Assembly (NCBI GenBank): GCA_964528855.1
Contig: CAZGVM010000002.1
Coordinates: 1 to 54,116 of the forward strand
Direction of reading: 5' to 3'
Length of the DNA stretch: 54,116 nucleotides
From: an uncultured Desulfomonile sp.
GTDB taxonomy: Bacteria > Desulfobacterota > Desulfomonilia > Desulfomonilales > Desulfomonilaceae
The first letter of the stretch is position 1; each line of letters starts with the position of its first letter. Positions 22,644-37,081 of this stretch are shown here, piece by piece. The translations under genes were made by a program, and so were the position numbers. The notes under the pieces are model-generated. The model saw only the letters and a list, made by a program, of their open reading frames with translations. It was not told the origin of the DNA and searched no databases.

Positions 22644-24935
22644 TCAAGCTTTGCGAATATAAACAAGAGGGCCTTGTTCCAAAAATTCTGACGGGTTGAC
22701 CCCTTCCGAACGCGGCTTGTCAAAAAATTGGTTCGTCTTGTCAATAGAGTAGGGTGTTGCCCCCGCCCCCCTATAACCATATCCGTTCGCCAACGCTACG
22801 ACCCCGGGTCTTATACCAGGAGCTATCTGAACTCTGACCGTTCTTTTTACTGATCCGTCAGAACTTTCGATACTGATCAATTCGCCTTGTTTCAATCCTC
22901 TGGCTCCAGCATCTACAGGATTGATAACCAGGCGATTTTCAGGCAGGGTTTCCAACAGCCAGGAATTCAAACCTGATTTCGGAGACCTATGAAAAGACTG
23001 GCTATAGGTGATCAAATTCAGAAAACCCTTGTCAGAACCGGCTTTAAGTTGAACACGACCTTCCCATCCGGATGGATTCACTTTATAGCCGGACTGTTTG
23101 CTAGCTGTCCTGCCAGGTGAGTCAGGCTGTTCGAAATATCCGCCTCTTTCAAACATTTTTTCGACAGTCGCCGAGTCAGTGTTTTTTGTGCGGTGAGATT
23201 GACTGAAAGCCTTGAACAAATCAGCAGTCGCCTTGTAGTAAAAGGCCTTTGCAATGCTGGGAGAATCCGTGGAGACGAAATCTTTTCCAAAATTCATTCC
23301 GAGCGCTTCCGAAAACTTGAAGAGAATATCTTCCATCAGCATCGTTTGCGGAAGAATGGGGAAATATCGCCCGCTTCGCTCGTCAACAGCCCCAACAGTG
23401 GGTGTCCTCAATCCAAACCCGGTTGCTGGACTAATAGATGGGGCCGCACAAATGTCCCACCTTTCCAGATACGTTGTGTCTGGCAAAATAAAGTCCGCCA
23501 TTGAGGCGGTCTGAGAGATGACCGTCTCTATCGCCACTACCAGCGGGAACTCCTTTTGATTTGAAATCAGGCCCGCCATTTTGGGATTCGAGTAAACCGG
23601 GTCAGCCTCCCAAATGACCAATGAATGGCCTGGAGTAAGCGGAGCCGGATCAGAAATTCTCGGTTCAACCGTGCCGAGAACATTTTTTTCCGCCTCTACA
23701 AAAAAGGAATTGTCGTCGTAAGCCAACCCGCCATGTCCTGGTATCGACCCCACCAGTAGATTCAGTGTCAGAATGGCTTCTGCAGCTTCTTTGCCAAATT
23801 GCTGCCTGTAAACTCCTGCGCCAGGAATCACCGCCGCTTGTGGACCTGCCTCGGCCAGCAATTTTGCTATCTCTATGGCCGCTCCTTCGTATGATCCCGC
23901 GTTTTCCGCATATTCTGACCCGCTATGATTCTTTACGGCATTCTTGATGGCTTCATTGTTGGCGCGCACAGCCAGGGGGAACCGATCAAAAAGAGCTTTA
24001 ATGACTCCCAGCGCAAAGCTTAAATCTTTACCGGGTATTATCGGAACCCAAATATCTGCTTTGGCTGCCGAAGTGGATTGACGCGGATCGATCACCACCC
24101 ATTTCAGGCTTGGCCTTGAAATTCGGGCCTCTGTCAGGTTCCGTGCTACCGAAAGCAAGGGCACTCCTGAATCTAATGGAGCAGACCCAAAATTCAGAAG
24201 GAATTTCGCATTCCTGTAATCTGCGTACGTCGAGCCGTATTCATCGCCAAAAACTGACCTGTTGACGGATTTGACCATGTCCTGGGCTAAAACAGAATCA
24301 TCCCTGAAGAGTCGCGCACCGGATAATGATTTGAGGAAACTCTTGATGAAGGTTAACGAACCCCAATCAGCATTCCCCACCAGGAAACCGAAACCCTGTC
24401 CGGCGTCTTTGGCTGCCTTGAATCCGGTGACTTTGCCTTCCCCAAACAAATCACCACCATTGGTGATCTCTGATATTGCTTCGGACCAGGATACCGCCCT
24501 CCACTTGCCTGAGCCACGCGGCCCCACTCTTTTTAATGGCCCGGCTATTCTGAAAGGATCGTATAGAGTCTGAATTCCACTCGAACCTATGGCGCAGATT
24601 GAAGCTCCTATGAGCGCCGCCTGTTCTGGATTTACCAGGAACGGCAGCGGATCACCCTTTGAGATAGGATGGAAAGAACTTCCGCCGATTTTCACTATTG
24701 CGCCCTCAGCGCTGCGGCAACAGATACCGCATCTGCCTTCGCACATGGCGCAAACACTGAAAAGGTTCTTCACGCCGTAGAGACTCTCTATCGGATCGAC
24801 ACCAGGAGCCCCTTTTATGTACTTAGGGACATTAGGCGGGTCTCCAAAAAAACTGCATCCAGCAAATAGTGAAACCCCACCCATCAATGAAGCGGTTTTT
24901 ATAAAATTTCTTCTGGTCAGTTTGGTCATTGCCAT
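22644..24935 (-). CDS. Molybdopterin-oxidoreductase-family large subunit, Tat-exported putative lipoprotein
   Basis: 763 aa with Tat motif TRRNFIK followed by the lipobox-like LFAGC. An FS0-type Cys cluster is present (CAMCEGRC...ICAIGSSG). A C-terminal Molydop_binding-like barrel is present (LVINPVDAGARGLKQGELISIES). By eye there is no Cys at the usual Mo-ligand position. Confidence 0.8.
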   Translation of the reverse strand: MAMTKLTRRNFIKTASLMGGVSLFAGCSFFGDPPNVPKYIKGAPGVDPIESLYGVKNLFSVCAMCEGRCGICCRSAEGAIVKIGGSSFHPISKGDPLPFLVNPEQAALIGASICAIGSSGIQTLYDPFRIAGPLKRVGPRGSGKWRAVSWSEAISEITNGGDLFGEGKVTGFKAAKDAGQGFGFLVGNADWGSLTFIKSFLKSLSGARLFRDDSVLAQDMVKSVNRSVFGDEYGSTYADYRNAKFLLNFGSAPLDSGVPLLSVARNLTEARISRPSLKWVVIDPRQSTSAAKADIWVPIIPGKDLSFALGVIKALFDRFPLAVRANNEAIKNAVKNHSGSEYAENAGSYEGAAIEIAKLLAEAGPQAAVIPGAGVYRQQFGKEAAEAILTLNLLVGSIPGHGGLAYDDNSFFVEAEKNVLGTVEPRISDPAPLTPGHSLVIWEADPVYSNPKMAGLISNQKEFPLVVAIETVISQTASMADFILPDTTYLERWDICAAPSISPATGFGLRTPTVGAVDERSGRYFPILPQTMLMEDILFKFSEALGMNFGKDFVSTDSPSIAKAFYYKATADLFKAFSQSHRTKNTDSATVEKMFERGGYFEQPDSPGRTASKQSGYKVNPSGWEGRVQLKAGSDKGFLNLITYSQSFHRSPKSGLNSWLLETLPENRLVINPVDAGARGLKQGELISIESSDGSVKRTVRVQIAPGIRPGVVALANGYGYRGAGATPYSIDKTNQFFDKPRSEGVNPSEFLEQGPLVYIRKA

Positions 24936-24952
24936 CTCAGAGTGAAACTATC

Positions 24953-25843
24953 TCAACTTAGTGGTATTTCAAATCCAATGAACACGACTGAATAACGCAT
25001 CAGGAAGACTCCGCCGATAATCAGCAGGGAAGCCAAAGCCAGCCAGTTTCGGTTATAACGTGTCTTTGGAGCCAGCAGTATTATCAACGGAACAAGCATA
25101 CCAGCCACGATTTCTCCCCACAAATACAACTTTTCGTGCAACGCAACCATGATGGACGCGTATCCGTCGGCGTTTGAAACCAGGAGGGTCAGCCAGAAAC
25201 ATGCCGTCCAGAAAAGATCCATCAGCAATATTCCTATCATCATGAGTCGCAGGCTTTTGAAAAGGTCAGGATCGAGTTTTTCCTTAATGTATCTTTCCAT
25301 GATCATTGCGACAACTACCAGAAGCGCTATCCCGGAGAGCAGGGCTGACGTAAGAAAGAAACCCGGCATCAAGGCTGAATGCCACCATGCTCTGGCTCGC
25401 ACCAGAGCAAACGCAAACCCCGTGTAGGCGTGAACAAAAATTGCCAATGGAACTGTTAAGGTCCCAAGAACTTTCGTCACTTTATCATTCTTGATAAAGA
25501 TGAAATATATGTAGATCAGGTTGGCTATCGGATAGAGAGTCAGCAGCCAGGAACCGTATGACAGGGCCGAAGTCCGGTTAAAGTATTCCGGAACAAGCGT
25601 GTGCCAGAACCTTAATGGTTGATGTAGGTCCATGATCAGGCAGGCGGGAGCTAGCAGGAGTAAAACAAAAGATATTATGGCCGCTGGCAACGCCATAGGC
25701 TTAAAACGTTTGATGCCAAATACGGTCGATAATGTGGATAGAATAAAAGAACCTGCCGACAAGCCCGTAAAATAGAAATACAGGGGAATATAAATCTTCC
25801 AGGGTATCTCATGGGGAACATTATATAAAACTGTGGCGTCCAT
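24953..25843 (-). CDS. NrfD/PsrC/DsrP-type integral membrane (quinone-interacting) subunit
   Basis: 296 aa with ~8 hydrophobic helices. Its ATG directly abuts the stop of the upstream FeS gene (TAGATG). Confidence 0.75.
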   Translation of the reverse strand: MDATVLYNVPHEIPWKIYIPLYFYFTGLSAGSFILSTLSTVFGIKRFKPMALPAAIISFVLLLLAPACLIMDLHQPLRFWHTLVPEYFNRTSALSYGSWLLTLYPIANLIYIYFIFIKNDKVTKVLGTLTVPLAIFVHAYTGFAFALVRARAWWHSALMPGFFLTSALLSGIALLVVVAMIMERYIKEKLDPDLFKSLRLMMIGILLMDLFWTACFWLTLLVSNADGYASIMVALHEKLYLWGEIVAGMLVPLIILLAPKTRYNRNWLALASLLIIGGVFLMRYSVVFIGFEIPLS

Positions 25844-26587
25844 CTATTTGTCACCGCTATTAGACCAATATGATGCGTTGGGGCTCGGGATGCTCTTGTT
25901 GTACTCCAGAATTCCCTCTCTGAAGTCATCCGTGAAATGTATCCTGCCCTTCAGGTCATGATCCGCCTGAATGTAATAGACTTTCGGCCTGGTTCCCAAC
26001 TCGGGTTTTATGACCGATGTGGGAGTGGAGGCCAACACCCTGAAGACCTCAGATGAAACGTCGTCCATGTCTCCGAAAATTAATGCTTTTGAGAGACATG
26101 CTTCCACGCAGGCCGGTTGAAGAGCGTTTTCAATCCGAAGGGAGCAGAAGTCACATTTGTCGGCCGTGTGTCTTATTGGATTAAAGAATCTGGCGTTATA
26201 CGGACAGGCCGATATACACATTCCACATCCTATGCACTTGCCGTAGTACATCACTATGACACCGTCTTCGTCACGTCTGACTGTCGCCTGCACAGGACAA
26301 ACCTGAACACATGGAGGGGTGTCACACTGATTGCAAAGCCGTCTGAGGAACATGGTTCCCACATCAGGGAAGTTTCCCTTCTGAAGTCCTTTTACCCATG
26401 ATCGCCAAAAACCCAACGGCACATTGTTTTCACTTTTGCAGGCCACCGTGCAACTGTGACAGCCGATGCATCTCCTCTGGTCCACCACCATCGCCCAACG
26501 TCTGGGTTTGGAGCCATCCTTCTCCTGGACAGGCTTTACAGACACTCCCATTCCTGAATTTCCGGTCGGCTTATCAGTCTTCATCAT
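25844..26587 (-). CDS. PsrB/NrfC/DsrO-type four-cluster [4Fe-4S] protein
   Basis: Four Cys groups are present: CIGCHSCTVAC, CNQCDTPPCVQVCP, CIGCGMCISACP and CDFC...CVEAC. I set the start at ATG 26587 (MMKTDKP), 1 nt after the cytochrome stop. The ORF-track start at 26647 would overlap the upstream gene. Confidence 0.85.
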   Translation of the reverse strand: MMKTDKPTGNSGMGVSVKPVQEKDGSKPRRWAMVVDQRRCIGCHSCTVACKSENNVPLGFWRSWVKGLQKGNFPDVGTMFLRRLCNQCDTPPCVQVCPVQATVRRDEDGVIVMYYGKCIGCGMCISACPYNARFFNPIRHTADKCDFCSLRIENALQPACVEACLSKALIFGDMDDVSSEVFRVLASTPTSVIKPELGTRPKVYYIQADHDLKGRIHFTDDFREGILEYNKSIPSPNASYWSNSGDK

Positions 26588-26588
26588 T

Positions 26589-27128
26589 TCATTTTGCCTT
26601 ATGACATCCCAAACAATTGAAGCGACTGAAAGATTCTTTGCCGTCATGGCACGAGCCTGTGGCGCAAGTGGCGCATGCCCTGGGAACGGCGTACGTCACC
26701 ATGACCGTCTCACCATCAACTATTGAATCCGGCACGAAAAGGGTAGAGGCTTCCTTGCCGATATGAACCTTCACAGGCGGAGAATCATCAAGAGCCCTGA
26801 TGACAAATGTGCCATATTTCTGGGGAGCAAATATTTTGTCGTGACAAACGTTGCAACTCTTGTATTTGCCTTCCTGGAAGGTCATGTGCGTATAATGTCT
26901 GAAGACCACCGGACCCGGCGAACCTAAGGCATTATATGAAAGGTTGCCTCCTCCGAATATGCTGGAAAAAGTCAAAATAGCGACTAGAAACCCTCCCAAA
27001 ACAAGGCCTGTCAGGACTATGCCCACTGCTTTAGATTGCAGTTTCCAAAAGTAAGACTGGTCCCTCAGATTCGAAATGAACTCCAGAATTACATTAAGTT
27101 TTCCGTTTTTTTGTGAAACAGCGGCCAT
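26589..27128 (-). CDS. Membrane-anchored trihaem c7/c3-type cytochrome
   Basis: 179 aa with an N-terminal TM segment (VGIVLTGLVLGGFLVAILTF). Haem sites are CNVCH, CATGSCH (CX4CH) and CLGCH. A c7-like FRHYTH.F lead-in is present. Confidence 0.75.
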   Translation of the reverse strand: MAAVSQKNGKLNVILEFISNLRDQSYFWKLQSKAVGIVLTGLVLGGFLVAILTFSSIFGGGNLSYNALGSPGPVVFRHYTHMTFQEGKYKSCNVCHDKIFAPQKYGTFVIRALDDSPPVKVHIGKEASTLFVPDSIVDGETVMVTYAVPRACATCATGSCHDGKESFSRFNCLGCHKAK

Positions 27129-27141
27129 AATAATCCCTGAT

Positions 27142-28896
27142 CTATCTCAAAGTCCCTACGTAATGTGACGTCCATTGACGTTTCCTGACTTCGGGATTGC
27201 CATAATCCGGAAGCACCATAGGAGACACTCTGTCGCCACCAACACCGGCCTCCTCAAGCTCCTTGTGATATTTCCTCACATGGTCCACCGACAGTTTTCC
27301 TATATCAGACCGTGTTTTTACATAATTTCCGGCGGTTTGGCCGGCCAGTCTCCCAAAAACCGTAATATCGAGAAGAGAGTTGCCCATGAGTCTGTTGGCG
27401 CCATGCACTCCGCCTCCAACTTCACCTGCCACAAAAAATCCCTCAACGGTCGTCGATCCGTCCCCTTTGTATGCCAAACCACCGTTTTGATAATGGAGAG
27501 TGGGATAAATGAGCATTGGAAGTTTTGATATGTCTATGCCGTAACGTTTGAAAAGTATGAACTTTGCGGGAAACTCTCTTTCTACCGTTCCTTCGCCTTC
27601 GAGCATATCGATCATGGGCGAATCCAGCCACACTCCGAACCTTCCGGGTTGTCCAGGAACAGGCGCTCCTTTTCCAACTTTTTCGCATTCCCGTATAATG
27701 CTGGCTGATTCTATGTCGCGAGGCTCACGCTCAAACACAAACTGGTCACCGTCTATGTTTACAAGATTGGCGCCTGCTCCCCTGACTTTTTCTGTGATGA
27801 GAAGTCCTTCAGCCTGTTCCGGAAATACGGCTCCGGTTGGATGAAACTGCGTGGCGTGTAAAAATCTGACCTGAATGCCTAAACGATACCCCATGACCAG
27901 TCCGTCACCGGTGGCGCCATAATGATTTGTGGTCATGAAACGGCTCATGTGAAGCCTTCCAGAGCCGCCGGTGGCCATGATCACCGCTTTGGCCTTTACG
28001 ATAAAGTATTCTTCTGTCTCCAGATTGTAGAGCACTGCGCCTGAACAGCGCCCTTTGTCGTCAACCAGTAGCTCAACTGCCGGTGAAAATTCCAGAACCC
28101 CGATGTCTTTAACCCTGTTACGAGACTCGTCACGCAGTGTTCTCATTATTTCCGCGCCCGTCATATCACCCGCATAGTGCATTCTCTTTCTGCAGGTTCC
28201 TGCGCCATGCAGTGTAAACATTTTGCCATCCGGCCATTTGTTAAACATGCATCCGAGCTTTTCCAGCCAGGCTATGGCTTTTGGGGCTTCAGTCACCATG
28301 GTCCGCACAAGATCCGGATCATTTTCAAAGTGCCCCCCGCCCATAACATCAAGAAAATGGTAGTAAGGTGAATCTTTCCAGCTTTTCGTAGACGCCTGCA
28401 TGCCGCCTTCGGCCATCATTGTGTTAGCATCTCCGTGCCTTAATTTAGTCGCTATGATGACGCGGGCTCCTTCTTCCTGGGCCAGAAGTGCGGCTGCCGT
28501 GCCGGCCCCACCCCCACCAATTACCAGCACGTCCGTTTCGTAATGAACTTCCTTAAAATCTATACTATCAGGGTCCACGCGGCTTTTTGCCTCAAAAGTG
28601 TCCGCTATCTCCTGGGCTATGGCCAAACCTTTGCTAGGCCCAACCTTCAACTCCCGTAAAGCTCCTGCCCGGAAATCAGGGTGGTATTTTTCCAATCGGT
28701 CACGACGTTGATCCAGAGTGAGAGCTGGGAACTCCTGCCCGGCCTTTTTCTTCATCACTCGTTCAGGACGGGTCTTCTCAACCCTTTTTATAAATTCCAT
28801 CAATTCTGCGGTGTATCCCATAAAATCCTCCGGATCAAAAAAGCTCTTGTTTCGCTTCAAAAAGGCTTTGCCACCATTTTTCAAGTATGTGGTCAA
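27142..28896 (-). CDS. SdhA/FrdA/NadB-superfamily FAD flavoprotein with ~110-aa N-terminal extension
   Basis: 584 aa with VLVIGGGGAGTAAAL, MATGGSGRL, QFHPTG and GFFVAGEV..GVHGANRLMGNSL. The TTG start overlaps the upstream stop (TTGA). Confidence 0.8.
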   Translation of the reverse strand: MTTYLKNGGKAFLKRNKSFFDPEDFMGYTAELMEFIKRVEKTRPERVMKKKAGQEFPALTLDQRRDRLEKYHPDFRAGALRELKVGPSKGLAIAQEIADTFEAKSRVDPDSIDFKEVHYETDVLVIGGGGAGTAAALLAQEEGARVIIATKLRHGDANTMMAEGGMQASTKSWKDSPYYHFLDVMGGGHFENDPDLVRTMVTEAPKAIAWLEKLGCMFNKWPDGKMFTLHGAGTCRKRMHYAGDMTGAEIMRTLRDESRNRVKDIGVLEFSPAVELLVDDKGRCSGAVLYNLETEEYFIVKAKAVIMATGGSGRLHMSRFMTTNHYGATGDGLVMGYRLGIQVRFLHATQFHPTGAVFPEQAEGLLITEKVRGAGANLVNIDGDQFVFEREPRDIESASIIRECEKVGKGAPVPGQPGRFGVWLDSPMIDMLEGEGTVEREFPAKFILFKRYGIDISKLPMLIYPTLHYQNGGLAYKGDGSTTVEGFFVAGEVGGGVHGANRLMGNSLLDITVFGRLAGQTAGNYVKTRSDIGKLSVDHVRKYHKELEEAGVGGDRVSPMVLPDYGNPEVRKRQWTSHYVGTLR

Positions 28897-29672
28897 ATGA
28901 AAGATTTGTCATCCGGCGTCCAGTCTTCAGGGGCCGTATGAGGTTCCATCTGCCGATCCACATAGAGTTTTCGCAAAGTTTCCGGGTCAGCGGCCATGAG
29001 TTGGTCCAAAGCTTTGTCATACCTGTGGGAATTTATTTTCTCCACCATGTCTTCCACGTGTTTAGCTTGAGGCCAAATATGCCGCCCCGTAATTCGTCTG
29101 CACATTATGGCGATATTATATTGGCCAAGTTCAGCTGGACACCGGGACGCGCAGATGCCGCACATCACGCAGGACATGGAAATTTCCGCGGCCTTTTCAA
29201 CATCTCCCCTGAGCGCGGCCGAGACATACTCCATGACCGAAATTTCCATAGGACATGATTTGGTGCAGGTGTTGCATCCCATGCATTTCGCAAGTTCCGG
29301 ATAGTATTTCAACAAAGTCTGAGCTTCGGGCTTGAGTTCCTCCAGATTGTAAACGGCCCTGTTCGCTGGGAAAAACGGAACCATTGTCAGATACATGTTT
29401 GGAATAACAACCGTCTGGCAAGCCAACCCAACGCTTATTTTGGAGCTGCCAGGCATCCTGTAGACCGTAGCGCATGCGCCACAAATTCCGCCACGACAAC
29501 CGCAACCGCGTATCAATTGGTAACCGGCATATTCGAAAGCCTTTTGAATGGTTAGAGTGCTCGGAACCATGTATCTTTTTCCCATTATGAAAATGGGAAC
29601 AAGATCAGTCCTTGCCGCTGCTTCGCTCGTTGTCTCGGTTTGCTGAACAGCCCCTTGAACCATTGAAGACAT
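28893..29672 (-). CDS. SdhB/FrdB-like iron-sulfur subunit ([2Fe-2S] plus 2x Cys4 motifs)
   Basis: Motifs present: CGCRGGICGAC...LAC, CMGCNTCTKSCP and CVMCGICASRCP. I set the start at ATG 29672, 7 nt after AAGGAAG. The ORF-track TTG at 29717 abuts the upstream stop. Confidence 0.8.
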   Translation of the reverse strand: MSSMVQGAVQQTETTSEAAARTDLVPIFIMGKRYMVPSTLTIQKAFEYAGYQLIRGCGCRGGICGACATVYRMPGSSKISVGLACQTVVIPNMYLTMVPFFPANRAVYNLEELKPEAQTLLKYYPELAKCMGCNTCTKSCPMEISVMEYVSAALRGDVEKAAEISMSCVMCGICASRCPAELGQYNIAIMCRRITGRHIWPQAKHVEDMVEKINSHRYDKALDQLMAADPETLRKLYVDRQMEPHTAPEDWTPDDKSFI

Positions 29673-35165: not shown

Positions 35166-36080
35166 TTAAATTTTTTTCACCCTGTTGTTACCGCTATCTG
35201 AGACATAAACAAATCCGTTTTTTTCCACTATACCTGTTGGTCTTCTCAGATCAGCGTCACCCGAGCCTTCTTTTCCAATGACTGCAAGCAACTTTCCTTC
35301 GGGACTGAAATGCTGAATCCTGTGGTTCCCGGTATCTGCGATCCATATAGATCCGTCGCTAGCCACAAACATTCCCTGTGGCAGATTCATCTGGCCCGGA
35401 GCGCTTCCCTCCGATCCAAAACTCCGCCTGAACACATTTTCCCTGTTAAAAAACTTTACCTGACCGTGTTTGCTGTCTAGCACTGCTATCTCGTTGTCAG
35501 GCGTATGGGAACATGCGGTCGGCAATCTGAACTGATCATCAGCGTCTCCAAGGTCACCTATGACCGAAATCAACTCATGGTTCCTGAAAACCTGTATCCT
35601 GTGATTTCTGGTGTCAGCCACGAGCATTCTCTTTTGGTCGTCCACGTAAACTCCTTGCGGAGTCGAGAAACAGCCGCCGATGCTCCCTACCGAACCTATT
35701 GACCTCTTTACCTGACCGTTTTTGTCGAAAACCTGTATTCGACAATTGTTCGAATCGACAATGTACAGCAGGCCTTCCTCATCACAGGCTATTCCCTTGG
35801 GATAGTTCAGTCTACCGATATGAGCGCCTGGCTTTCCAAAGTAATCAGAAGGCACAAGATCGTCATTCAGCTTTGAGATACGGTATACCGGAGGCTCGCT
35901 GACGAACAGGTTGCCCTCCGGATCAAAAGCCAGGGCAAAAGGGTTGTTCAGAGAATGGGAGTCTTTTGGTGTGGGGGCAGATGGTGATTCAGTTGCGCCA
36001 GTGATTTTAGCCGCGCCGACCGCCAGCGTTGATGCCACTCCAGCGGCCCCCAGGGTTTTGATGAATTCACGTCTTTTCAT
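35166..36080 (-). CDS. Tat-exported six-bladed NHL-repeat beta-propeller protein
   Basis: 304 aa with Tat motif KRREFIK plus a hydrophobic segment and AxA. About six repeats of the ...P.G(I/V)A.D..G.(I/L)(Y/W)(I/V)(A/V)D..N(H/C)RIQ(V/H)F type are present. Confidence 0.8.
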   Translation of the reverse strand: MKRREFIKTLGAAGVASTLAVGAAKITGATESPSAPTPKDSHSLNNPFALAFDPEGNLFVSEPPVYRISKLNDDLVPSDYFGKPGAHIGRLNYPKGIACDEEGLLYIVDSNNCRIQVFDKNGQVKRSIGSVGSIGGCFSTPQGVYVDDQKRMLVADTRNHRIQVFRNHELISVIGDLGDADDQFRLPTACSHTPDNEIAVLDSKHGQVKFFNRENVFRRSFGSEGSAPGQMNLPQGMFVASDGSIWIADTGNHRIQHFSPEGKLLAVIGKEGSGDADLRRPTGIVEKNGFVYVSDSGNNRVKKI

Positions 36081-36258: not shown

Positions 36259-36921
36259 TCATGCAAAACGCATTATTTCATTAACAGACGCTCTTTTACT
36301 CCTGAACAGACTCGCCTTGTCGGTTGGATGCGGATAGCCCAGGGCTATTCCAATCACAAGCTTAAAGGTTTCTGGAACCGAGAGAGTTTTTCGCACTATG
36401 TCCGGGAAATGCATTGAAGCCGCCAGATAGATCGTTCCCAATCCCTGTTCGGTGGCAAGATAACAGATGGTCGTCCCGATTGACCCTATATCCAGGCACG
36501 AATAGGGCTCGTTCATCTCTGCATTTATGAAAAGATATATGATGGAAGGGGCGCCGAAGAATCTGTACATGTTAAGGTAATGCTGTTTACGGGCTTCCTT
36601 GTCATCTCGCTCAATCCCCATGTAAGTGAAAAGTTCTGACCCCAACCCCATGTATCTTCCTTTATAAAGTTCAGGAAAGATCACCGGCGTCTTGATGTCC
36701 GGACGCGGAGCAGTGCCTTTCTTGCCCTCCTCTTCAAATGCGTCTGCCAGTTGTTTCGCCTTTTCGCCATCTGCAACCACTATTTCCCATGGTTGGGTGT
36801 TCCCCCATGAAGGCGCCCATCGCGCGTTGTCTATTATCCTGGTTACTATTTCTCTTGAAACTGGTTTGGGTAAAAAAGATCTTATGCTTTTGCGGTTCAA
36901 AATCGACTCTTCCAGATTCAT
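36259..36921 (-). CDS. Nitroreductase-family flavoprotein
   Basis: MNLEESILNRKSIRSF...APSWGNTQPW is typical of the family. I set the start at ATG 36921, 7 nt after GGAGGG. The ORF-track start at 36936 is a GTG inside the SD sequence. Confidence 0.85.
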   Translation of the reverse strand: MNLEESILNRKSIRSFLPKPVSREIVTRIIDNARWAPSWGNTQPWEIVVADGEKAKQLADAFEEEGKKGTAPRPDIKTPVIFPELYKGRYMGLGSELFTYMGIERDDKEARKQHYLNMYRFFGAPSIIYLFINAEMNEPYSCLDIGSIGTTICYLATEQGLGTIYLAASMHFPDIVRKTLSVPETFKLVIGIALGYPHPTDKASLFRSKRASVNEIMRFA

Positions 36922-37081
36922 TTTTATTCCCTCCACAGTAAAAATTTATTTTGTATTACAGTATCATAAATTTTATGTACGGAAAAACTACTTCTAAATA
37001 TTTACAAAAATGCGAAAATAATGCTAATTTAGAGCGTTAATACTTAGACAACAATTCACAGTAGTGAAGGAGGGACCCAAA

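Follow-up and report, generated by a model that had tools for sequence, protein, structure and literature searches.

What does a flavoprotein of the SdhA/FrdA type do in a cell when nothing encoded beside it would serve as its usual membrane anchor? The question is raised by two genes in a 54,116-nucleotide stretch of DNA (the window, meaning the whole stretch analyzed here) from an uncultured Desulfomonile sp. of the family Desulfomonilaceae (assembly GCA_964528855.1, contig CAZGVM010000002.1). One encodes a flavoprotein, the other an iron–sulfur (FeS) subunit, and both open reading frames named in an initial annotation of the window are there, within a long series of genes that all read along the minus strand. 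That annotation took the pair to employ the Sdh/Frd catalytic module in a non-classical way and suspected a substrate other than succinate or fumarate. The first idea has worn well. The pair is without the histidine that binds flavin adenine dinucleotide (FAD) covalently, the C-terminal SdhA domain, a 3Fe-4S motif and an anchor, and the NCBIfam models for known enzymes score below their cut-offs. The second idea has not, given that the substrate-site residues of FrdA are invariant and that malate dehydrogenase, fumarase and tricarboxylic acid (TCA) cycle genes lie beside relatives of the pair elsewhere. Our reading, to which we would give a probability of about 0.6, is that the pair is an anchor-less fumarate reductase heterodimer with non-covalent FAD, for which the Desulfomonilaceae have swapped an Hdr-type donor module for a membrane and periplasmic redox operon.

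The first evidence comes from the flavin site. Aligned with Protein Data Bank (PDB) chains, Asn133 of the flavoprotein (in a DANT motif) falls on the covalent-FAD histidine of Escherichia coli FrdA and M. smegmatis SdhA. The position reads x-N-(T/S) in all 93 family rows, His in SdhA-like outgroups and Cys in TfrA equivalogs; two proteins scoring above the TfrA equivalog cut-off, P0188 and L078:10055-11680, have G-C-T there. The covalent-FAD histidine proposed initially, in KLRHGD, turned out to lie four residues upstream of the true position and is not conserved. Judging by these alignments, the FAD of the pair is non-covalent. When 45 sequences drawn from many phyla are aligned, N133, H327 (in QxHPTG), E344, R347, R368-D369 (PRD), H443 and R477 prove invariant. 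The residues H327, E344, R347, R368, H443 and R477 we take to be FrdA H232, E245, R248, R287, H355 and R390 in E. coli numbering. The equivalents of FrdA T244/E245 are likewise kept, and the comparison with superfamily structures thus finds every fumarate-site equivalent retained. Only 19 fixed differences separate the Desulfomonilaceae flavoproteins from the rest of the family, none of them catalytic.

FrdA His44 variants, with non-covalent FAD, keep fumarate reduction and lose succinate oxidation. Could the pair instead be a physiological succinate dehydrogenase, whose electrons flow outward into the multihaem and pterin proteins encoded around it? Sdh/Frd enzymes are reversible in vitro, and the periplasmic carriers in the operon could accept electrons. 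The invariant Asn at the covalent-FAD site, read alongside the His44 variants, argues the other way, as does a canonical covalent-His SdhA elsewhere in the same genome, and we find the idea very hard to credit. That SdhA (573 aa, with a TRSHS covalent-His motif and a full Succ_DH_flav_C domain) follows a citrate-synthase-like gene at G000:C135:6090-9048; the contig ends soon afterward, so that its SdhB and anchor lie outside view. Since a canonical enzyme sits next to citrate synthase there, the pair in the window is an extra one.

The architecture of the flavoprotein departs from SdhA at both ends. Its true start is almost certainly the ATG at 28821, because GGAGG stands 5 nucleotides (nt) before it and about 100 homologues at 81–97% identity are equally long (559–560 aa). 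The 584-aa frame reported initially exists and opens with TTG, but the protein we predict is 559 aa. FAD_binding_2 is its sole Pfam match (residues 122–508 of the 584-aa TTG frame), with no match to Succ_DH_flav_C (PF02910). The tail past HGxNRL measures 63–77 aa in the family as against 158–195 aa in SdhA and TfrA outgroups, which leaves the C-terminal domain about 100 residues short of SdhA and bears out the earlier impression of a shortened C terminus. Every NCBIfam model for SdhA, FrdA, TfrA or NadB falls far under its cut-off. The best, TfrA NF004900 (cut-off 718), reaches 331.9 bits and matches profile positions 5–425 of 546 only; TIGR01812 gives 284.8 against 567.3; and the NadB models score 216–265 bits (TIGR00551, 264.5 against 452.75).

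At the other end stands an N-terminal extension conserved across phyla, both in alignments and in the N termini of 89 loci. Initially put at some 110 residues, it is real and has a length of about 93 aa once the ATG is taken as the start. Motifs VE.TR, HPD and G.NKG precede the FAD fold. An AlphaFold2 model of the flavoprotein is confident (predicted local distance difference test, pLDDT, 89.9 overall and above 90 across the extension) and folds the extension into helices 5–26 and 36–46, two short strands and a helix at 70–76. The core of the model (74–503) superposes on Shewanella flavocytochrome c3 with Z 42 and a root-mean-square deviation (rmsd) of 2.1–2.3 Å over about 391 residues, and residues 91–535 superpose on E. 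coli FrdA (1kf6_A) with Z 39.8. Residues 1–73 have no counterpart in these structural matches. Two candidate origins for the extension were tried and rejected: a permuted SdhA C-terminal domain has no sequence support (hhalign probability 0.2%), and a haem domain like that of flavocytochrome c3 (Fcc3) would call for a CxxCH motif, which is absent. The flavoprotein has no apparent signal peptide.

The FeS subunit begins with an ATG at 29672 preceded by AGGAAG. Twelve cysteines are invariant in 55 FeS sequences, arranged as C-x4-C-x2-C-x17-C followed by two complete CxxCxxCxxxCP motifs. The initial description of an SdhB-type [2Fe-2S] motif with two full cluster motifs is therefore accurate and, the second motif being complete and invariant, there is no 3Fe-4S-type motif. 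Searched against PDB sequences, the family profile finds Wolinella succinogenes FrdB, E. coli FrdB and mitochondrial SdhB (E 3e-7 to 1e-4), mainly through the 2Fe-2S domain. The structure model adds a second likeness. Its cluster domain (114–200) is nearest in fold to HdrC (Z 10.8, rmsd 2.3 Å, 87 residues); among the matches listed, FrdB and SdhB align over both FeS domains in the same order (Z 6–7, about 140 residues; 1kf6_B, Z 7.1 over 142 residues). With Foldseek, SdhB and FrdB fell outside the best 50 matches and surfaced only in the VIA and PDB-sequence profile searches. The modeled subunit is thus FrdB/SdhB-like in architecture with a cluster domain closest in fold to HdrC. A natural single-chain fusion, P0125 (727 aa), carries the FeS subunit on the N terminus of a flavoprotein that has the extension. 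This supports the view that the two form an obligate heterodimer, and suggests that the N-terminal extension is close to where the FeS subunit has its C terminus.

As to an anchor, the first impression was right: the contig has neither an SdhC/D-type gene nor a CCG domain, and Sdh_cyt has no match anywhere in the genome, which is 93% complete. A canonical anchor that might have been overlooked was looked for and none was found. On other contigs of the same genome there are 28 CCG-domain matches in at least 14 proteins, a point to which we return below.

Where does such an enzyme belong? In an exhaustive search of 50%-identity representatives only a few clusters share the extension; beyond them, SdhA- and NadB-like matches begin at about residue 95. 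A locus scan taking one genome per species returned 80 loci, spread over Thermodesulfobacteriota, Bacillota (including Blautia and Christensenella), Bacteroidota, Chloroflexota, Spirochaetota, Nitrospirota, Cloacimonadota, Aminicenantes, Thermoplasmatota, Bathyarchaeota, Theionarchaea and others. In 75 of them the gene immediately upstream of the flavoprotein gene encodes the FeS subunit. We built a tree with the quick IQ-TREE method (LG+G4), using TfrA, TfrA-like, PRK07803-type and canonical SdhA sequences as outgroups. The extension-bearing family is monophyletic against these (SH-like approximate likelihood ratio test, SH-aLRT, 99), and the flavoprotein of the window is nested inside it, outside the TfrA and SdhA outgroups. 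No orthology to NadB or TcuA was found. All 12 Desulfomonilaceae sequences group in a single clade (SH-aLRT 100), which is nested among sequences with Hdr genes around them (L001 and L002 first, then L003 and L004, then L005–L007); the membrane context of the clade is therefore derived.

The company kept by the pair in other organisms speaks to both its donor and its substrate. Neighbors were clustered and scanned with Pfam. Where 6 kb or more of sequence is available upstream, as at 53 loci, HdrA or HdrB is near the pair in 42, and HdrC, MvhD and Flx-like NAD-binding FeS flavoproteins recur beside it. Linkage to Hdr, MvhD or Flx is thus typical of the family without being universal, and it is absent at the window. 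A malate dehydrogenase, a class I/II fumarase or a malic enzyme is near the pair at 25 of the 53, and further neighbors include 2-oxoglutarate:ferredoxin oxidoreductase, Mvh hydrogenase, Asp-Al_Ex permeases and dicarboxylate transporters. Some loci do without Hdr. In Nitrospira (L060:754-8986) the gene order starts with aconitase and monomeric isocitrate dehydrogenase, goes on to the pair and ends with succinyl-CoA synthetase beta, an arrangement of the reductive TCA (rTCA) type, and in Leptospirillum (L066) an rTCA-type cluster surrounds it, with a citrate-synthase-like gene as well. Metagenome-assembled genomes of Kingella/Cardiobacteriaceae (L071:7250-14674 and L073) have the pair between a class I fumarase on one side and, on the other, a NuoF-like protein followed by a DASS (Na_sulph_symp/CitMHS) transporter. 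The NuoF-like protein is an FeS protein of the kind that binds flavin mononucleotide (FMN) and NADH, and the arrangement looks like an NADH-linked variant of a soluble fumarate reductase.

Because the active-site residues are invariant, the clade-specific changes spare the catalytic positions and the neighbors elsewhere are of TCA type, fumarate is the likely substrate. The independent contexts (malate dehydrogenase, fumarase, rTCA genes) point to conversion of fumarate to succinate, and we infer both substrate and direction from them. A different substrate has something to be said for it: L-aspartate, for a NadB-like oxidase or dehydrogenase, or else an unsaturated or sulfur-containing dicarboxylate brought in by the permease of the operon. 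NadB has identical catalytic residues, and its models do score 216–265 bits here. The family is known from genes, without biochemical characterization in the literature searched, and the operon includes an NHL propeller and a nitroreductase of unknown role. Yet the NadB scores stay under cut-off, neither NadA nor Asp_DH_C is found in the 93%-complete genome, and NadB works without the FeS partner that adjoins the flavoprotein at nearly all loci and is fused to it in P0125. Malate dehydrogenase, fumarase and the TCA cycle keep recurring around the pair across phyla, and no clade-specific substitution touches the active site. A role as L-aspartate oxidase was accordingly rejected on the missing NadA and Asp_DH_C and the low NadB scores, and we regard another substrate in general as improbable.

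The family itself is already known from genomes, as a putative soluble AB or 'TfrAB-like' fumarate reductase. In tubeworm symbionts a putative thiol:fumarate reductase is interleaved with flxABCD-hdrABC, and rTCA clusters are described (PMC6315080). The 'succinate operon' of Pseudoclostridium thermosuccinogenes is said to hold a 'unique fumarate reductase' whose activity is coupled to the reduction of ferredoxin (PMC7282089, citing for this a preprint of 2019, Koendjbiharie and van Kranenburg). Ca. Celaenobacter has a TFR-OGOR-Mvh-Hdr cluster (PMC8542988), and putative soluble A/AB fumarate reductases, SFR_A and SFR_B, are reported from Nitrospira and others (PMC13147460). We found no biochemical characterization of the soluble AB-type family in the literature searched. 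Literature searches for the Desulfomonilaceae operon returned nothing, and its wiring appears to be undescribed in the searchable literature. The catalytic pair, then, is a member of a known family; what is particular to the Desulfomonilaceae is the membrane and periplasmic operon around it.

That operon is set out in the table. Intergenic gaps around the pair, between the ferredoxin gene and the trihaem cytochrome gene, are 13–71 nt.

Table. The pair and its neighbors in and next to the Desulfomonilaceae operon, in order of position in the window.
Feature	Position	Strand	Remarks
PNPOx-like gene, 130 aa	22205-22597	minus	distal end of block
Tat-exported molybdopterin-family subunit	22644-24935	minus	DsrJOP/Qrc-like module
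NrfD-type subunit	24953-25843	minus	DsrJOP/Qrc-like module
Four-cluster FeS protein	25844-26647	minus	DsrJOP/Qrc-like module
Trihaem cytochrome	26589-27128	minus	DsrJOP/Qrc-like module downstream of pair (22644..27128)
Flavoprotein subunit, soluble-type fumarate reductase (putative)	27142..28821	minus	559 aa; extension, FAD domain, capping domain, truncated C-terminal region
FeS subunit, 259 aa	28893..29672	minus	[2Fe-2S] beta-grasp, then helical domain with two CxxCxxCxxxCP
Tail-anchored 2x[4Fe-4S] ferredoxin, 159 aa	29718..30197	minus	C-terminal transmembrane helix 140-158; immediately upstream of pair
N-anchored heptahaem NapC/NirT-type cytochrome c, 322 aa	30259..31227	minus	7 CxxCH
Polytopic membrane protein, 342 aa	31227..32255	minus	C-terminal 2x[4Fe-4S] is the sole recognized region
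Membrane-anchored FeS protein, 180 aa	32230..32772	minus	
Internally duplicated permease (candidate), 567 aa	33028..34731	minus	ESM Atlas language-model neighbors only
Anchored protein, 108 aa	34788-35114	minus	
Tat NHL-repeat propeller	35166-36080	minus	
Nitroreductase-family protein	36259-36936	minus	with the propeller and the 108-aa protein, among the leading genes of syntenic block

The operon is a fixture of the family. We fetched 16 kb around the flavoprotein gene in 11 further Desulfomonilaceae genomes, from 10 genera, and found that the run of 14 genes, which opens with the nitroreductase and closes with the molybdopterin-family subunit, keeps its order in all 11 (one stretch stops at a contig end before the nitroreductase). 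The PNPOx-like gene is present in the one same-genus relative and absent from the ten genomes of other genera, and is probably outside the conserved operon. The flavoprotein occurs in 19 of 24 Desulfomonilaceae genomes, and the permease and the NapC-type cytochrome in 22 of the 24; none of the three is found among 16 genomes of the sister family. G016 and G020 are without all three alike. The other three genomes that have no flavoprotein show operon matches on other, mostly short contigs, with a contig end in G023 and in one G006 fragment. Such joint presence and absence means that the operon behaves as one unit. Outside the family the picture is different: the other operon genes of the window do not recur in the 80 loci, save for two weak matches to the 342-aa FeS protein. 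A scan for operon promoters and terminators gave counts no higher than in shuffled sequence. One oddity among the orthologues is the NapC-type cytochrome at G024:C59:56277-57164, where a single in-frame TGA lies within a 510-aa open frame; it may encode selenocysteine, or come from a frameshift or an error in the sequence.

How might electrons reach fumarate in this setting? Within the dimer they would enter at the FeS subunit, pass through the two [4Fe-4S] clusters and the [2Fe-2S] cluster, and arrive at the FAD. The conserved His/Arg/His/Arg site would then reduce fumarate, the PRD arginine presumably donating the proton. In most lineages the donor module would be HdrABC/MvhD with Flx or Mvh, and in others a NuoF-like protein. 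In the Desulfomonilaceae the pair is predicted to be co-transcribed with the tail-anchored ferredoxin, the membrane FeS proteins, the heptahaem cytochrome, the putative permease and the DsrJOP/Qrc-like module. The probable electron source here is the menaquinol pool or else the periplasmic cytochromes, and the membrane FeS proteins would carry the electrons to the cytoplasmic face. The ferredoxin, whose FeS domain is presumably cytoplasmic, is a candidate for both the electron-input adaptor and the membrane tether: it may dock the dimer to the membrane on the cytoplasmic side, its clusters handing electrons on toward the FAD. Fumarate, perhaps imported by the operon permease, would be reduced to succinate. 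The cell would in effect respire fumarate with neither an SdhC/D nor a CCG anchor. We infer each of these electron-transfer links to neighboring proteins, and with them the coupling of the pair to the membrane and periplasmic proteins of the operon, from gene content and order.

The polytopic permease deserves a word here. Its nearest neighbors in the ESM Atlas are SLC13/CitMHS/MatC_N proteins and DcuA/DcuB dicarboxylate carriers, and its sequence is 75–92% identical across Desulfomonilaceae. As a candidate fumarate/succinate transporter it is only a lead. Kinship to the Asp-Al_Ex permeases of clostridial clusters was considered and rejected (hhalign probability 0.2%).

Several things weigh against our reading. 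The assignment of fumarate is context-based, and the active-site residues are common to L-aspartate oxidase. The permease gives no Pfam match even at E ≤ 5, and its assignment comes from language-model neighbors alone (scores 0.92–0.93). The ferredoxin, the 180-aa protein and the 342-aa protein resemble the HdrC and Flx subunits of Hdr-type loci only in the generic manner of 2x[4Fe-4S] proteins (best match cluster c5, probability 92% over 92 columns). The initial annotation was right to point to a tail-anchored ferredoxin and multihaem proteins as the neighbors, but its 'NosR-like' label finds no confirmation in the 342-aa protein, which has no FMN_bind match even at E ≤ 5. Nor is any protein with transmembrane redox cofactors, such as a dihaem cytochrome b, recognizable in the operon. 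With no such cytochrome evident and FMN_bind undetected, the route to the cytoplasmic FeS proteins is the weakest link. Lastly, many Hdr/CCG proteins are encoded elsewhere in the genome and could serve the pair in trans.

This last point can be made into an explanation of its own, in which the pair is a soluble fumarate reductase still served by an Hdr/Flx-type module encoded elsewhere, its position in the operon reflecting co-regulation only. The CCG-domain proteins on other contigs, the Hdr linkage of its nearest relatives (L001–L007) and the want of an obvious transmembrane cofactor protein between periplasmic haems and cytoplasmic clusters would all suit it. It sits badly with a pair lying mid-operon between such short gaps, in an order kept in 11 other genomes of 10 genera, and with an operon gained or lost as a unit. 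We think it unlikely, though less so than the alternatives of substrate and direction discussed above, and we continue to favor a fumarate reductase whose donor module has been exchanged for the proteins of the operon.

If that is correct, one may go a step further. The soluble, Hdr-type dimer, tethered by the ferredoxin, fed by NapC-type, membrane FeS and DsrJOP/Qrc-like proteins and supplied by a dedicated dicarboxylate permease, may form a new fumarate-respiring complex that stands in for the SdhC/D-type anchor and for the Hdr module alike, possibly with an electrogenic redox loop. We put this forward tentatively, at something short of even odds. The soluble AB-type family is thought to permit quinone-independent fumarate reduction in many anaerobes. 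Its dimer would seem to be a portable module that accepts electron inputs as different as Hdr/Flx, Mvh, a NuoF-like protein and the membrane multihaem/FeS system of the window. Were the Desulfomonilaceae wiring functional, it would bring a new architecture into the way fumarate reductases are classified, and would offer a tractable case (cultured Desulfomonile exist) of a cytoplasmic FeS flavoenzyme coupling to periplasmic or quinone carriers in sulfate reducers.

It remains to place the pair among the systems it resembles. Classical complex II (E. coli FrdABCD and SdhCDAB, W. succinogenes FrdCAB, type E SdhABEF) has the FAD/capping fold and the dicarboxylate-site residues in common with it, and FrdB (1kf6_B; profile E 3e-5 to 3e-7) the same two-domain order as the FeS subunit. 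The pair differs in having no covalent-FAD His (the 8-alpha-N3-histidyl site in R-S-H-T), no Succ_DH_flav_C and no SdhC/D or SdhE anchor, and in carrying a second complete [4Fe-4S] motif in place of the 3Fe-4S motif. Shewanella Fcc3, which gave the highest structural Z (42), also has non-covalent FAD, no SdhA-type C-terminal domain and an N-terminal add-on of about 100 aa. That add-on, however, is a tetrahaem cytochrome in a periplasmic enzyme, whereas the extension in the window has no CxxCH and electron input falls to a separate FeS subunit. NadB differs in that the flavoprotein here has an FeS partner, scores below cut-off with the NadB models and comes from a genome in which NadA was not found.

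Another such system is TfrAB, the thiol:fumarate reductase of Methanothermobacter, reportedly described by Heim et al. in 1998 (cited in PMC6315080). Like the pair it is anchor-less with non-covalent FAD, TfrA equivalogs having Cys at the His position, and the cluster content of the FeS subunit resembles that of the N-terminal half of TfrB. TfrA, on the other hand, has a full C-terminal domain and no N-terminal extension, its model gives the flavoprotein 331.9 bits where 718 are required, and TfrB has CCG domains where the 259-aa partner has none. There are, finally, the published soluble AB or 'TfrAB-like' loci. The loci we sampled (Mdh-fumarase-Hdr/Flx in Clostridia, rTCA in Nitrospira and Leptospirillum) are of the same type, as far as they can be likened by description, and together with the pair in the window they make one family, with the extension, the Asn at the covalent-His site, the short C terminus and the upstream FeS gene in common. 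What distinguishes the pair from its Hdr-linked kin is its surroundings: no Hdr, Flx or Mvh gene lies nearby, and it is set instead inside a membrane and periplasmic redox operon.

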